In this document: positions 913 through 29,390 of the stretch, in pieces
How the letters are laid out: the number at the start of each line of letters is the position of its first letter
Numbering within the stretch: the stretch's first letter is position 1
Source: Verrucomicrobiota bacterium
Lineage (GTDB): Bacteria; Verrucomicrobiota; Verrucomicrobiia; Limisphaerales; UBA1096
DNA length: 33,288 nt
Assembly (NCBI GenBank): GCA_003972865.1
Contig: QOAX01000295.1
Span: 1 to 33,288 of the forward strand
Direction of reading: 5' to 3'
Notes under the pieces: model-generated
Told to the model about the DNA's origin: nothing
What the model saw: only the letters and a program-made list of their open reading frames with translations
Database searches by the model: none
Made by a program: the position numbers and the translations under genes

Positions 913-2240
913 TCCCCGTCGGTCAGGGGCCAGTCGAAGTGGATTCGTTTGCCTTTGCGGAGGAGGATCAGTGGCAGTTTGTCGCCTACCCTGTAGTTGA
1001 GCTTCACGTGCATGTTGAAATGCTGCGAGTTCATCCGCAGCGGTTTGCCTTCCATGCCAATGATGATGTCGCCCTGCCGCAGGCCGGCACGCTTGGCGTT
1101 GCGGCCCTCGGGTCGGCCGGTGTTGATCCAGCGCACCTCGAGCGGCTTCACGCCCTTGGCCAAGCGCAGTGGCTTGATCTGCTTGTCTTTCATCGGCGCG
1201 CACCACGTGGCTAAAACCGGCTTGATCGACCAAATCGAGCCGCGCCACGAAATATCGGTCTTCTTCCAGTCGGCGTTCATCGCCAATTTCTTTTCGATCG
1301 CGTGATCGCCGCGTGTCGCCTTCAACGTCACGTTGGCTGAGGTGTTCGGGAGGTTGTGCAGCACCCATTGCAGGTCGGCGATGGAGGTGAGCACTTGGCC
1401 GTCGGCGCGGGTGAGCACGTCGCCCGGGTGGAGACCGGCTTTGTAGGCGGGAGAGTCGGCCTGCACGGCGGTGACGACGAGACCGTCGCTGGGGTCGAGT
1501 TGCAGGCCAAGGTTGTCCGGCAGCGGGTAGCGCCAAAGTGCGTCGTGGTTGAGCCGGCCGGCGTCTTGCAGTTGTTCATGCTCGGCGTCGTGGATGTTGT
1601 GGCAGTGCACGCAGTTGTTGCGCGCGGTGCTGCCGGCGAGCTTGCTGCGATGTTTCATGCCGGGCATTTGCAGCGCGGACTTGTACGTCTTCGGCTTGCC
1701 GAGTTTGCCGGCGAGGGCGGCTTGGTTTGCCGGGTAGCCATTGTGCAGGGCGAGCACGCGGCGCATGGTTTTCTCGAGTGACTCGACCGAGTTGTAGGCG
1801 TCCGCCCCCATGGCCGACTGGGTGCCGTAACGGGCGTACACGGTGCCGTCGGCGTTGATGAACATCGCGGCCCAATTCAGGTCGTAGTCGAACTGGAACT
1901 GCGACAAATCCACGCCCTTCATTTCCACCTGCCGCACGGCCACAAATTTTTCCTGCGTGAAGTTTTTGATGCGCTGATTATTCTTGGCCACCTCGGCGTC
2001 GAAGCCTTTGCAGTCGGCGCACGGCACGCAGCGGAAGGTGACGAACAGTGGCTTGTTGGCGCGCTTGGCCTCGGCACGGGCGGCGGCGAGATCGTTGTAA
2101 ATCCAGAAATCTGCGTCGCGGGCATTTTCGTCCTGCAACACATCGAGCAGCTTGTTTTGTGCGTGAGCCATTTGGCCAAGCGCGAGCGTTGCCGCCGCTG
2201 CAAACAGGAGCAGGGGGGAGGGTATGGTTTTCATTGGCAT
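909..2240 (-). CDS. Secreted thioredoxin-like/PDZ domain protein with a CxxCH motif (Trx7/PDZ family-like, Cys form)
   Basis: Signal-like N-terminus, [20 protein letters not shown] Trx-like segment, CVHCH, PDZ motifs ([23 protein letters not shown]); start may be 2234. Confidence 0.7.
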
Positions 2241-2348
2241 GGGGGTGTTGATCTGTTGGGCGGATGAGACGTCCGCCTGTTAAAAACCGCAAGCGCATTT
2301 TCTTCCCGCTTGCCAAGCGGGGTTTTTTTTCTTACTGCTGCCTGCCGG

Positions 2349-3128
2349 ATGAGTAAGCCACTTGCAGGAAAAACCGGGGTTGTCTTTGGCGTCGCCAACA
2401 AGAATTCAATCGCGTGGGGCATCGCCCAGGCTTGGCATGAGGCCGGCGCCAAACTGGCGTTCACCTATCAGGGCGAACGGTTGAAGGGGAAAGTTGAAAA
2501 ACTGGTTTCCGATTTCGGCGAGGACACTTTGGTGACGGAGTGCGACGTCAGCAGTGACGGGGACATCGACCGCGTATTTGGCGAGGTCGGCTCTCAGTTC
2601 GGCGGCAAGCTGGATCTGCTTTTGCACTCAGTGGCATTCGCGCCGCGCGAGGCGCTTGAGGGTCGTTTTGTCGATACCACGCGCGAGGCGTTCGCCACCG
2701 CGCACGACGTCAGCGCCTACTCGCTGGTGGCCCTGGCCAAGCGCGCCGCTCCGCTGATGACCGATGGCGGCAGCATCATCGGCATGAGCTACTACGGCGC
2801 GGAAAAAGTCATCAAGCATTACAACGTCATGGGCGTGGCCAAGGCGGCGCTCGAGGCGAGCACGCGTTATCTCGCGGCCGACCTTGGCGAAAAAAAGATC
2901 CGCGTCAACTGCATCAGTGCCGGCCCGGTGAACACTCTCGCGGCCCGCGGCATCGCCGGTTTTTCGGAGATGCTCAAGCACTACGAGGCCCGCGCCCCGC
3001 TCAGGCGCAATGTCTCCCACGAGGAACTGGGTCAGACCGGTGTGTTCCTCGCCAGCGACGGCGGCGCGGCCATCACCGGCCAGGTTATCTATGTCGATTG
3101 CGGCTACCAAATCATGGGTGGAATGTAA
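2349..3128 (+). CDS. fabI: Enoyl-ACP reductase (NADH)
   Basis: [42 protein letters not shown] motifs. Confidence 0.95.
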
Positions 3129-3139
3129 GGCTTGATGCC

Positions 3140-4015
3140 TTACGAGGTCGCTTTCCAGTTTTTAAGTTCCTCGGTGAGGCCTTCGCGGAAGGTGGGGTAT
3201 TTGTATTGGAAGCCGCTGACCCACTTGAAGAGGTCGTTCGAGACGCGCTTGTTGGTGATGCCGCGTTTGCGGGTGGACCGATCCGGCTCGGGGACAAAGG
3301 GCGGCATCGGGCGTCCGGTGGCTTCACTCAGCCACGTAAAAAAATCCAACTGCGTCACCGGCTCGTCGTCGGTGATGTTGTAAATGTTGGCCCCCTGTCC
3401 CGGGTGAGTGAGCACGCGGACGATGGCTTCCGCCAAATCGTCCCGGTGCACCATGTTGAGAAAGCGCTTTCCGTCGCTCTCGATGGTGGCGTTTCCGCTC
3501 ATGAATTGTTGGAACAGATAGCCCCGTCCCGGGCCGTAAATCCCGGATGATCGCAGAATGGCGACCGATGGGCCGGCTGTCGCGATTTCCCGCTCAGCTC
3601 CCCGGAGTGTTTTGGTGGTGATGTTATCAGGGGTATCGGCTCCATTTTCAAAAACCCATTCAGCGTTCGTCTGGCGATAAACTCCGGTGCTGCTGATGAA
3701 CACGGCGGATGAGGTGTCCGCCGTTTTGAGCCATTGCGCGATGTGTTTCGTGCCAAGGCCGAAAACTTGTTTATATGCATCTTCGCCGCCACGGGAGGAG
3801 GAGATGGCGATGACGACCCAGTCGTATTGGCCGTCGAGTTTGGCGAATTCGCCTTCCTGGGTGATGTCGATGTTGAGGGGGCGGATGCCGAGCTTGGCCC
3901 GGCGGTCGTTGTGTTCGCTACTGCGCCGGATGCCGGTGACGTCGTGGCCAAGCGCGATCAGCCGTTGGCCAAGCGCTTCGCCGACGTAGCCGCAGCCGAT
4001 GATCAGTACCCGCAC
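3140..4015 (-). CDS. NAD-dependent epimerase/dehydratase (atypical SDR, YeeZ-like)
   Basis: [11 protein letters not shown] Rossmann motif, ISSTGVY, GIYGPGR, NKRVSN, YPTFREG; GTG start at 4015 preferred over TTG at 4039. Confidence 0.85.
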
Positions 4016-27868: not shown

Positions 27869-27894
27869 AACACCTCCTACTCACAACAATCGCA
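27864..27894 (+). repeat. 31-bp direct repeat, copy 1 (AATGAAACACCTCCTACTCACAACAATCGCA)
   Basis: One mismatch to 29480-29510. Confidence 0.95.
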
Positions 27895-27912
27895 GCCGTG
27901 CTGTGCCTTTAA
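27865..27912 (+). pseudogene. Truncated gene start: signal-peptide stub MKHLLLTTIAAVLCL*
   Basis: ATGA overlap with the upstream stop; the first 30 nt match the start of CDS 29481 at 29/30. Confidence 0.6.
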
Positions 27913-27974
27913 AATTACTCCATTGACGCAGAGGGATTTTGGACTACTTTTTCAGCACTAAGTTATATCGAGAA

Positions 27975-29390
27975 ATGAAAACACTCGTAACAACCATGCT
28001 GCTCGGCTCGGCTGTCTGCTTTCAAGCGGCCGATTGGCCCAACTGGCGCGGCCCGGACCACAATGGCATCTCCCAGGAAACGGACTGGTCCGAGAAATGG
28101 GGCTCGAGCGGCCCCAAGCGACTTTGGAATGCCTCGGTCGGCACTGGCGTTGCCACCGTCTCGGTGGCCGACGGACGGGTGTTCACCATGGGCAACAAAT
28201 CCAACCGCGACTCGGTTTACGCCCTGGAGGAAGCGACTGGTGATATCCTGTGGCGACATTCCTATTCTGAAGCATTAAGCCCCAAACAATACGATGGTGG
28301 ACCCAGTGCAACTCCTACCGCCGACGGCGAATACGTTTACACCCTTAGCAAAACTGGGAAGGCGTTTTGTCTTGAGGCGTCCACTGGAGACGAGGTGTGG
28401 AACAGGGATTTAAAACAACTCTACAGTCTTCCGACGCCTACCTGGGGTTTTGCCTCCTCAGCGTTGATCCATGGAGACAAGGTTGTTTACAATGTTGGCT
28501 CACGCGGGATTGCACTTAGTAAGACAAACGGCAGCCTCAAGTGGAAGACCGCCAGTGGCACACCAGGCTATGCAACCCCCGTTCGCTACGACCATCGCGG
28601 CACCGAGGCTTTCATCATGTTCGGCCCCAGCTACGCCTATGGCGTGAATGCCGCCACGGGCAAGCAGCTCTGGTCCAAGTCCTTTAAATCGAGCGACATC
28701 AATGCCGCAGACCCAGTTTTGTACGATGGCAAGATCTTCCTCACCTCCAGCTCCCGTGACGGCGAGTTGATCGAGCTGAGTGGCACCAGCACAAGTTCCA
28801 AATGGAAGAACCGCAACATGCGTATCTACTTAAACGCCGGGGTGGTGATCGGCGATTATTTGTACGGTGCCGATGGCACTACCAATCGCGGCAACACGGT
28901 CCGCTGCATCAACATGGAAACCGGCGAAACCGAGTGGACAAAAAACAGCATTCCTTGCGCTTCTATCACCGCTGCTGATGCCAAACTGATCATACTCAGC
29001 CTCACCGGTGACCTTTACATCGCCGAGGCGTCGCCGAGCCGTTTTATGCAACTGGCCAAGGCCAAGGTCATCACCGGCACCTGCTTGACCGTGCCGGTCC
29101 TGGCCAACCGAAGCCTCTACGTCCGCAACTCTCGCGGCACGCTCTACAAGCTGCAAATGAGCGAGATGGTGGTCGAGCCGCAGCCGTTGGCGGTTAATTT
29201 TGCCGGCAGCTACCTCGAGTTCTCCTGGCCGGCCAAAGGCAACTTCATCCTCGAGTCTGCCGATGCGCTTGGCCAAGCAGCCGACTGGAGCGAGGTCGGC
29301 GGAAGACCGCCCACCACGGAGGATGACCGTTACGTTGTCCGCGTCAGGCCAAGCGCTGGACAGCAATTTTTCCGTCTCCGCAGCGAATGA
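27975..29390 (+). CDS. Secreted PQQ-binding-like beta-propeller protein with an extra C-terminal domain
   Basis: Signal peptide, DWPNWRGPDHNG, GPSATP, propeller repeats, about 70-aa tail ending QQFFRLRSE. Confidence 0.85.
   Translation: MKTLVTTMLLGSAVCFQAADWPNWRGPDHNGISQETDWSEKWGSSGPKRLWNASVGTGVATVSVADGRVFTMGNKSNRDSVYALEEATGDILWRHSYSEALSPKQYDGGPSATPTADGEYVYTLSKTGKAFCLEASTGDEVWNRDLKQLYSLPTPTWGFASSALIHGDKVVYNVGSRGIALSKTNGSLKWKTASGTPGYATPVRYDHRGTEAFIMFGPSYAYGVNAATGKQLWSKSFKSSDINAADPVLYDGKIFLTSSSRDGELIELSGTSTSSKWKNRNMRIYLNAGVVIGDYLYGADGTTNRGNTVRCINMETGETEWTKNSIPCASITAADAKLIILSLTGDLYIAEASPSRFMQLAKAKVITGTCLTVPVLANRSLYVRNSRGTLYKLQMSEMVVEPQPLAVNFAGSYLEFSWPAKGNFILESADALGQAADWSEVGGRPPTTEDDRYVVRVRPSAGQQFFRLRSE
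29267..29278. repeat. Perfect 12-bp palindrome GCTTGGCCAAGC (only TTGGCCAA-containing copy seen after the tRNA)
   Basis: Inside the 3' part of the PQQ-like CDS, read as A-L-G-Q-A. Confidence 0.95.

Follow-up and report, generated by a model that had tools for sequence, protein, structure and literature searches.

The stretch of DNA analysed here (hereafter the window; 33,288 nt) is contig C2 of the draft genome of an uncultured marine Verrucomicrobiota bacterium (G000; 2.77 Mb in 319 contigs, 60.2% GC, 73% complete), and it carries many copies of a short palindrome, TTGGCCAA, which is the core of a perfect 14-bp palindrome, CGCTTGGCCAAGCG. A preliminary description of the window had listed 17 copies of the 8-mer, six perfect copies of the 12-mer GCTTGGCCAAGC, two perfect 14-mers, and one-mismatch 14-mers of the form CGCTTGGCCAGGCG or its mirror form; the count and every position were reproduced exactly (Table 1). 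In 100 dinucleotide-preserving shuffles of the window, by comparison, the 8-mer appeared 0.82 times on average and never more than 3 times. In our own open reading frame (ORF) calls, the copies lie in three frames and in genes on both strands (nine LAK, six LGQ and two WP), and the motif forces less-used codons (CTT, 11%, and TTG, 19% of leucine codons; CAA, 34% of glutamine codons; CCA, 11% of proline codons), as had been described. Protein scans of the window also agree with the description that no cognate gene is visible in it. The reported GC content of about 65% is not uniform, as values of 47-68% occur along the window and the genome has 60.2%. For the copies at 4032 and 20485, the predicted TTG start is the motif's own TTG, and both copies are probably intergenic. 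A tandem-repeat scan of the window returned nothing relevant to the motif.

Table 1 Motif copies and the putative integrated element in the window (CDS, coding sequence; strand in brackets)
Position	Feature	Context	Remarks
1156..1163	TTGGCCAA copy	in CDS 909-2240(-)	LAK frame
2172..2179	TTGGCCAA copy	in CDS 909-2240(-)	LGQ frame
3965..3972	TTGGCCAA copy	close to 5' end of CDS 3140-4039(-)	LGQ frame
4029..4042	perfect 14-mer CGCTTGGCCAAGCG	overlaps predicted TTG start of 3140-4039(-)	12-mer at 4030; probably divergent intergenic, ahead of 4072-5733(+)
4219..4226	TTGGCCAA copy	in CDS 4072-5733(+)	LAK frame
4659..4670	perfect 12-mer	in CDS 4072-5733(+)	LGQ frame
7646..7653	TTGGCCAA copy	in CDS 6641-7831(+), Fe-alcohol dehydrogenase family	LAK frame
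9667..9680	perfect 14-mer	34 nt within 5' end of CDS 8443-9711(-)	12-mer at 9668; LGQ frame
9767..9780	one-mismatch 14-mer CGCTTGGCCAGGCG		
10413..10420	TTGGCCAA copy	in CDS 9756-10715(+)	LAK frame
10863..10870	TTGGCCAA copy	in called ORF 10718-11119(-)	LAK frame
11301..11308	TTGGCCAA copy	in CDS 11232-14900(+), FG-GAP/ASPIC protein	LAK frame
13032..13043	perfect 12-mer	in CDS 11232-14900(+)	AWPS frame; 8-mer retained in 9/11 aligned relatives
14801..14808	TTGGCCAA copy	in CDS 11232-14900(+)	WP frame; retained in 9/12 aligned relatives
16142..16153	perfect 12-mer	in CDS 14953-17115(+)	LAK frame; 8-mer retained in 11/16 aligned relatives
16325..16338	one-mismatch 14-mer		perfect 8-mer here in 7/16 aligned relatives
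19109..19122	one-mismatch 14-mer		perfect 8-mer here in 6/16 aligned relatives
19653..19660	TTGGCCAA copy	in called ORF 19355-19810(+)	LGQ frame; retained in 6/11 aligned relatives
20485..20492	TTGGCCAA copy	7 nt 3' of stop of CDS 20499-21551(-); overlaps predicted TTG start of 19878-20492(-)	post-stop example
22160..22173	one-mismatch 14-mer CGCCTGGCCAAGCG (mirror form)		perfect 8-mer here in 7/8 aligned relatives
29267..29278	perfect 12-mer	in CDS 27939-29390(+)	LGQ frame; sole copy in the window's last 12.8 kb
23222..27868 (+)	putative integrated element	tRNA-Lys, integrase, primase, small ORFs	no motif copy; GC 47-54%
23222-23296	tRNA-Lys(ttt)	in element	
23418-24530	tyrosine integrase	in element	
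24665-26215	D5_N/DUF5906 P4-type primase	in element	
26993-27868	metallophosphoesterase	in element	

Throughout the G000 genome, TTGGCCAA occurs 2065 times, one copy per 1.34 kb, against 36 expected at zero order, and each of the nine commonest 8-mers of the genome is a sub-word of CGCTTGGCCAAGCG. The 10-mer CTTGGCCAAG is present 1425 times versus 9.5 under a second-order Markov model, and the 12-mer 733 times. Genes were called by our own simple method based on ORFs and codon scores, which gave 2054 genes and a coding fraction of 86% and missed some genes (e.g. 24665-26215). Synonymous codons were shuffled within each gene with the protein and the per-gene codon usage preserved (30 shuffles). 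Coding DNA contains 1666 copies of the 8-mer versus 240 ± 18 (maximum 278) under this shuffle, and the corresponding values are 1111 versus 70 for the 10-mer, 541 versus 19 for the 12-mer, and 284 versus 6 ± 2 for the 14-mer. Protein coding thus does not explain the motif, in agreement with the preliminary description. The preliminary description had named disappearance of the enrichment under a codon-preserving shuffle as grounds for rejecting the motif; the excess outlasts the shuffle, so the motif is not refuted in this way.

The sequence logo reads (S)CGC-TTGGCCAA-GCG(S), with information that drops outward and none beyond ±4 bases of the 8-mer, indicating that the motif is not part of a longer repeat. 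Under the second-order Markov model, all 15 single-base variants of CTTGGCCAAG are over-represented 2.6-34 fold, CCTGGCCAAG most of all. Transition neighbours are the most strongly enriched, with T>C at position 2 reaching 34 fold, and of the symmetric double variants, CCTGGCCAGG alone exceeds expectation (8.8 fold). The core deamination variants CTTGACCAAG and CTTAGCCAAG (complements included) are enriched 7.2 and 11.8 fold rather than depleted, which is the opposite of the outcome expected from very-short-patch repair. Repair of this Dcm/Vsr type was rejected because of the variant spectrum, together with the lack of a C5 methyltransferase in 24 of the 26 genomes of the family described below; Vsr (PF03852) was not searched for. 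A more general molecular drive unrelated to uptake, acting through sequence-biased mismatch correction, gene conversion or site-directed repair and yielding a motif without cellular function, would be consistent with the enrichment of all one-mismatch variants and of the transition neighbours in particular. It would also fit the switching of orthologous sites between perfect and one-off forms across species, and a spread over frames and minor codons that resembles a force on DNA rather than on proteins. Such a drive is quite improbable, as the 7-12 fold enrichment of the deamination products and the C5 methyltransferase-free genomes argue against it, the association with comEC and dprA loss reported below is left unaccounted for, and no repair system with a 14-bp recognition site is known to us.

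In our gene calls, 1666 of the 2065 copies (81%) lie inside coding sequence, with a clear bias among frames (TTG-GCC-AAx 966, xTT-GGC-CAA 596 and TGG-CCA 104). Per kb, the 8-mer is 1.5 times denser in non-coding than in coding DNA (1.05 versus 0.70), and the 14-mer 2.9 times (0.35 versus 0.12). A metagene profile revealed a post-stop peak of 2.46 copies per kb in the first 50 nt, chiefly at offsets of 1-13 nt, and a lower pre-start peak of about 1.55 per kb across the 100 nt before start codons. Between genes, density decreases from convergent (1.44 per kb) to tandem (1.24) to divergent (0.94) arrangements. Gaps between copies are near-exponential (coefficient of variation 1.06), with gaps below 250 bp mildly over expectation (520 versus about 380). 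No sharp period was found in G000 except for 21 pairs of copies 12 bp apart, which are short head-to-tail (GCGCTTGGCCAA)n chains. In the window, the copies at 3965, 4032 and 4219 form a cluster within 260 bp at the start of gene 4072-5733(+); this cluster may be due to chance, given that 236 gaps below 100 bp exist genome-wide. The 553-aa product of this gene falls in no Pfam family and resembles an ArsR-like helix-turn-helix only weakly (residues 41-93, E 8e-4).

A role as terminator or other RNA hairpin was not supported, since the 14-mer folds only weakly as RNA (-3.5 kcal/mol), a T-run lies within 20 nt of only 16% of the non-coding copies, and the palindrome arms are barely longer in non-coding than in coding DNA (5.68 versus 5.34). 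A miniature mobile or REP-like (repetitive extragenic palindromic) repeat, spread by a transposase, would likewise be a short palindrome with thousands of copies that is denser between genes, and the occasional head-to-tail chains would suit it. In contrast to such a repeat, the motif shows no conservation beyond the ±4 bases, 81% of its copies are in frame within intact genes, and its orthologous copies vary by substitution, not insertion. REP elements and miniature inverted-repeat transposable elements (MITEs) were rejected because of the logo without flanks and the coding share, with no search made for a RAYT-type transposase; the mobile-repeat explanation is exceedingly improbable and close to refuted.

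Alternatively, the palindrome may be the site of an abundant dimeric DNA-binding protein (nucleoid-associated, chromosome-organising or a global regulator), or a small 3' RNA hairpin, kept by selection independent of transformation. A perfect palindrome of 14-16 bp with outward-falling information has the usual look of a dimer site. The peaks before starts and after stops, the mild surplus of gaps below 250 bp, the retention of orthologous sites above background and the persistence of the motif in genomes without comEC and dprA (both below) all agree with this explanation. Against it stand the 81% of copies within genes in all frames and, for the hairpin form, the weak folding, the scarce T-runs and the similar arms. 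In addition, no candidate protein was found, and a binding site leaves unexplained why density drops in precisely those lineages from which comEC and dprA were deleted. This explanation is considered unlikely. On nucleoid-protein binding as such, which the preliminary description had also named, the evidence points neither way.

To place the motif in a wider context, its distribution was followed across genomes. In the genome collection, the family of G000 is a single genus with 26 species genomes, G000 included, that are 59-93% complete. The 10-mer is present in all 26 genomes, at 41-3286 copies versus 1-19 for a composition-matched control, and these genomes span about 40-66% GC. The 12-mer, by comparison, reaches 0-3 copies per genome in the sister families (one genome from each of 35 families of the order) and no more than six copies in each of 400 other genomes drawn across the phylum. 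The motif is thus confined neither to the window nor to one genome. The proposal that this lineage has its own motif-selecting system is supported by the genome-wide abundance, by the excess over the protein-preserving shuffle, by the presence in 26 of 26 family genomes and by the background levels elsewhere.

The nearest named relatives of the window's GlcD come from marine metagenome-assembled genomes labelled Verrucomicrobia/Verrucomicrobiota, Verrucomicrobiales or Pedosphaera sp., and the loci labelled Limisphaerales in this comparison are more distant ones without the motif. The 18 loci whose GlcD identity reaches 74% or more all carry the motif (1-16 copies per 10 kb, 42-66% GC), and the 62 more distant loci have 0-2 copies each. 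About 11 kb of the window was aligned with 18 related loci, a small sample of species that are themselves related. Motif sites are exactly kept in 37 of 60 aligned cells versus 0.305 for all 8-mers, a comparison that is indicative only, and 22 positions in these 11 kb bear the motif in one or more of the 19 species compared. Orthologous copies differ through point substitutions, not insertions, and where the window has one-mismatch copies, sister species have perfect ones at the orthologous positions. These data are indicative of motif sites that are held above background yet turning over. As for the GlcD-like ORF itself (17240-18718, GTG start as listed; orthologues L115-L149), many relatives have a stop codon inside the part aligned to its 492 residues, and distant homologues align only from residues 24-45 on; translation probably begins at a site 3' of 17240.

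Methylation-coupled repair around a GGCC/TGGCCA core had been suggested in the preliminary description as a source of the motif. Four Pfam methyltransferase families were searched for with profiles in G000 and all 26 family genomes, and control genomes gave matches each time. The C5 methyltransferase family PF00145 was detected in two of the 26 genomes, one of them motif-poor, and the N4/N6 family PF01555 and the Dam-type family PF02086 in one each, both times the motif-poor G008. This genome, alone in the family with N4/N6 and Dam-type enzymes, measures 4.5 Mb and is not a reduced genome. The type-I-like family PF02384 gave marginal matches only (E of at least 1.5e-5, in ORFs of about 285 aa), and none of the four families was found in G000, which is 73% complete. 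Such near-total absence is hard to explain by assembly gaps; an unmodelled family would escape the profiles. The suggested repair is not supported, given the absence of methyltransferases from nearly all 26 genomes and the enrichment of the deamination variants.

The same counts bear on a classical element of the HIP1 (highly iterated palindrome 1) type, that is, a palindrome in step with orphan methyltransferases modifying its GGCC or TGGCCA core. The hyper-abundant palindromic octamer core with G/C-rich extensions, the copies in genes in all frames, their retention above background and the restriction-type words GGCC and TGGCCA in the core all resemble such an element. Type II methyltransferase sites are usually 4-8 bp long, and the recognised length of 14-16 bp with graded information exceeds this. 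HIP1-style methylation as the main driver was rejected because of the near absence of methyltransferases in the family, and an element of this type is very improbable here.

Motif density was further compared with the presence of DNA-uptake genes. PilT was found above the curated cut-off in all 26 family genomes. DprA (PF02481) is present in 14 of the 26, versus 35 of 35 sister-family genomes, and ComEC (PF03772) also in 14, to which G007 adds an N-terminal fragment truncated by a contig end; the comEC of G000 likewise breaks off at a contig end, after 422 residues. A DprA protein query against ten genomes brought up nothing beyond marginal matches to a 244-246-aa paralogue (E 0.002-0.009). 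Eighteen genomes show one or both of the two proteins, and eight show neither (G001, G004, G006, G008, G010, G011, G024 and G025). The genomes were grouped by ComEC and DprA first and their motif densities compared afterwards, and seven of the eight both-negative genomes turned out to have the seven lowest densities among the 26. The ratio of the 10-mer to its control is 16-93 in these seven versus 128-478 in the 18 genomes that have one or both genes, and the 10-mer density is 12-291 versus 373-923 per Mb. Fourteen absences in seven genomes would arise by incompleteness alone with p ~2e-10, a rough value that assumes independence and 1 - completeness per gene. The dprA gene of G015 itself (L150 7640-7672) contains an overlapping double copy of the motif, with two TTGGCCAA 12 bp apart and a one-off copy 30 nt upstream, and this stretch gives many short matches of 92-100% across genomes.

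The synteny of both loci was examined in three motif-poor genomes, G010, G025 and G008, in each of which the conserved flanks of dprA lie on one contig. With a 10-kb stretch around dprA of G015 as the query, dprA is gone between the flanks in all three, the intervening DNA measuring 507 bp versus 1285 bp in the query for G010, 340 versus 1491 bp for G025, and 713 versus 1466 bp for G008, and no DprA similarity is left between the flanks. At the comEC locus (query around comEC of G013), the flanks in G010 enclose 60 bp, and an N-terminal remnant of 49 residues survives. Those in G025 enclose 2.4 kb of unrelated DNA, and in G008 1.9 kb replaces 4.7 kb; neither of these two genomes retains anything similar to ComEC there. 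The losses of comEC and dprA in these three genomes are real deletions.

Lineages were defined from single-gene trees of GlcD and two PilT paralogues built with quick methods. G001, G011 and G024 (no match) and G014 (paralogue and C-terminal fragment only) are missing from the GlcD tree and were placed by PilT only, and the PilT rows G022_B and G009_B (wrong frame) were disregarded. All three gene trees agree that the seven low-density genomes represent three separate lineages. The low-GC genomes form one clade beside G003, G005 and G018, which are motif-rich. G010 groups with the comEC-bearing G002 as its sister (99% support in both trees that include G010), and G025 branches apart, within the clade of G015, G021 and G022. 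Five of the seven genomes have 40-43.5% GC in sampled stretches, and G025 and G010 have about 52% and 60%, respectively, at the GlcD locus. The low-GC clade (G001, G004, G006, G008 and G024; L084-L103) is the clade that lost comEC and dprA, and the loss of transformation and the fall in GC may be linked.

Motif copies at orthologous positions were also compared with those of G000. G010 shares 20 copies with G000 over 47.5 kb, with 22 private to G000 and 9 to G010, and G025 shares 5 over 38.9 kb, with 20 private to G000 and 7 to G025. The uptake-gene-positive genomes, pooled (4-16 kb each), share 31 copies, with 18 private to G000 and 70 to the other genome; many of these comparisons use one glcD region and are not independent.

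The anatomy and placement of the motif, its family-wide sharing and its association with comEC and dprA match the descriptions of the DNA uptake sequence (DUS) and the uptake signal sequence (USS), as well as a recent proposal for HIP1 (PMC13756078), supporting the reading of CGCTTGGCCAAGCG as an uptake sequence. We consider it probable that CGCTTGGCCAAGCG is a palindromic sequence of the DUS/USS kind that enhances DNA uptake and is maintained by transformation in one uncultured marine Verrucomicrobiota family. Biased DNA uptake was among the causes listed in the preliminary description; it draws real support from the association of motif erosion with the loss of comEC and dprA, and we infer the uptake bias toward the motif itself, as well as a pilus-associated receptor. 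Competent cells would bind outside double-stranded DNA via a type IV pilus-associated receptor favouring the palindrome, and the DNA would be drawn in, one strand passing through ComEC, and recombined with DprA and RecA. Motif-bearing alleles would be taken up more often, and the motif would in this way spread to every tolerant site, that is, LAK, LGQA and rarely AWPS codon contexts and, above all, the first bases after stops. Freshly acquired foreign DNA would be without the motif, and upon deletion of the uptake genes the drive would end and the motif decay through mutation. The palindrome, and it alone, suggests that the receptor may bind as a dimer.

In the window, no motif copy occurs from 20493 to 29268. 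Within this interval, 23222-27868 is read as a putative integrated element with a tentative right border, located at tRNA-Lys(ttt), in which two small ORFs without family accompany the genes of Table 1. Synteny with related loci stops at about 23.3 kb, and the element is not common to them. A search of the element for att repeats yielded only an unrelated 42-nt direct repeat (76% identity; 27843-27884 and 29459-29500). This repeat spans the starts of two adjacent genes, 27939-29390 (PQQ/BamB-like) and 29481-31931 (PSD/PSCyt planctomycete-type cytochrome protein), indicating that the upstream/start regions of the two are similar. Genome-wide, 5-kb segments below 55% GC contain about 1.6-1.75 motif copies versus 4.1-4.5 in those above 60% GC. 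At the other end of the window, the product of 909-2240(-) belongs to the Trx7/PDZ (seleno)protein family (NF041199, 440 bits versus a cut-off of 300).

Several observations weigh against the uptake-sequence reading. The organisms are uncultured, and the uptake bias is inferred from sequence. The genes comEC and dprA are widespread in bacteria without an uptake sequence, so their mere presence says little. No receptor was identified: ComEA is not recognisable, and HHH_3 matches are limited to ORFs of 370-527 aa, in uptake-gene-positive and -negative genomes alike. Comparison of the pilB-pilT-pilB neighbourhoods in G015 and G025, which differ only around a glcD-like gene, offered no receptor candidate, and the G010 copy is on a 3.4-kb contig. 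Moreover, the known DUS and USS are asymmetric, whereas the motif here is a perfect palindrome. Among the genomes, G011 has no comEC or dprA match yet a high motif density (67% complete; profile search only), and the dprA neighbourhood of G000 starts at a contig edge. The independent contrasts are only three, on single-gene trees, and that of G010 is modest (291 versus 383 10-mers per Mb in its sister G002).

Base composition is a further point. GC is lower, too, in two of the three motif-poor lineages (about 41% and 52%), and gene loss and motif loss could share another cause. By our estimate, composition accounts for about 5-fold in the low-GC clade, where the drop is roughly 100-fold, and for about 1.6-fold in G025, where it is 5-10-fold. 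In the genomes without uptake genes, the motif still stands at 16-93 times the control, and this residue may be a relic or a sign of another role. Lastly, the other motif-free stretches of at least 8 kb in G000 hold rpoB-rpoC, sulfatase/glycan-degradation genes, and PQQ or molybdenum redox enzymes; with rpoB-rpoC among them, absence of the motif does not always mean foreign DNA. Such stretches are on contigs C54 (L231), C5 and C53 (L229, L230). The gap at rpoB-rpoC fits strong protein constraint, and those with large multi-domain sulfatase/DUF7133/GDSL genes, at 53-58% GC, may be accessory glycan-degradation islands.

Among known systems, the placement rules given for DUS and USS in the available part of a recent study are as for this motif (bioRxiv 10.1101/2025.10.24.684340). 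According to the same part of that study, the DUS of Neisseriaceae, read by the minor pilin ComP, resembles the motif in its frequency of about one copy per kb, in its occurrence in and between genes with enrichment just 3' of genes, and in being common to a whole family and biased in frame within genes, and its hosts encode a type IV pilus, ComEC and DprA; the DUS is missing from mobile elements, and the putative element in the window has no copy of the motif (bioRxiv 10.1101/2025.10.24.684340). The motif differs from the DUS in sequence and phylum, and is a perfect 14-bp palindrome composed of inverted 7-mers without a spacer, unlike the asymmetric 10-12-mers of DUS. Its weak hairpin, the lack of any terminator sign and the failure to identify a ComP-like receptor are further differences, and it is known from sequence alone; one motif only was followed across genomes.

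For the Pasteurellaceae USS, the predicted receptor is the minor pilin ComN, according to the part of the source available (bioRxiv 10.1101/2025.06.16.659825). Like the motif, the USS has a core with weaker flanks, over-represented one-off variants, permissive coding sites and a family-wide distribution. The USS is AT-flanked and asymmetric, whereas the motif is a GC-rich palindrome whose host genomes range over 40-66% GC. The cyanobacterial HIP1 (GCGATCGC) is likewise a hyper-abundant palindromic octamer in genes with above-background retention across species. In the accessible parts of the relevant papers, HIP1 has recently been proposed as an uptake signal (PMC13756078; bioRxiv 10.1101/2024.09.10.611283; PMC5861425; PMC4390886), and it is tied to two orphan methyltransferases, with an effect on transformation reported to be methylation-dependent (bioRxiv 10.1101/2024.09.10.611283; PMC5861425; PMC4390886). 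The motif differs from HIP1 in sequence, in its longer recognised length, in its spread at the level of a family rather than a phylum, and in the absence of the methyltransferases from almost all family genomes. REP elements, bacterial interspersed mosaic elements (BIMEs) and MITEs are also short multi-copy palindromes common after genes, but are restricted to intergenic DNA, measure at least 20-40 bp and have a conserved structure, in contrast to the mostly genic motif without conserved flanks.

The preliminary description knew of no such motif for this group, and the literature searched, whose coverage excludes supplements and most subscription journals, indeed has no report of the motif or of an uptake sequence in Verrucomicrobiota. 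In a word search of the literature, CGCTTGGCCAAGCG occurs in none of the papers listed, and the listed papers containing shorter words look unrelated to genome motifs, judged by title only. What appears to be new is a DUS/USS-like signature in a further phylum, carried by a different sequence that is a perfect palindrome and lacking the methyltransferases that go with HIP1. Uptake sequences have been described for two proteobacterial families, with cyanobacterial HIP1 as a proposed third case, as far as the available parts of the sources go (PMC13756078; bioRxiv 10.1101/2025.06.16.659825; bioRxiv 10.1101/2025.10.24.684340). Whether the motif would be a third independently evolved uptake-sequence system and the first in Verrucomicrobiota, based on a perfect 14-bp palindrome and a dimeric, methylation-independent receptor, is in our view evenly balanced.

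The motif would have several implications. A palindromic motif free of methyltransferases parts methylation from uptake, which are entangled in the HIP1 literature. The lineages without uptake genes are natural knock-outs at different stages of erosion, providing a sequence-only test of molecular drive versus selection for another function; if the uptake-sequence reading is true, decay of the signal would be visible as it happens in the three comEC/dprA-deleted lineages, two of which have in addition drifted to low GC. As a sharp marker of the family, the motif could help to bin contigs, to flag foreign DNA and to design constructs for genetic access to these uncultured organisms. If the reading is true, this case, known from metagenome-assembled genomes only, would mean that self-biased transformation is no peculiarity of host-associated Proteobacteria and is also at work in free-living marine bacteria, highlighting that self-recognising natural transformation would be active in abundant uncultured bacteria of the ocean.

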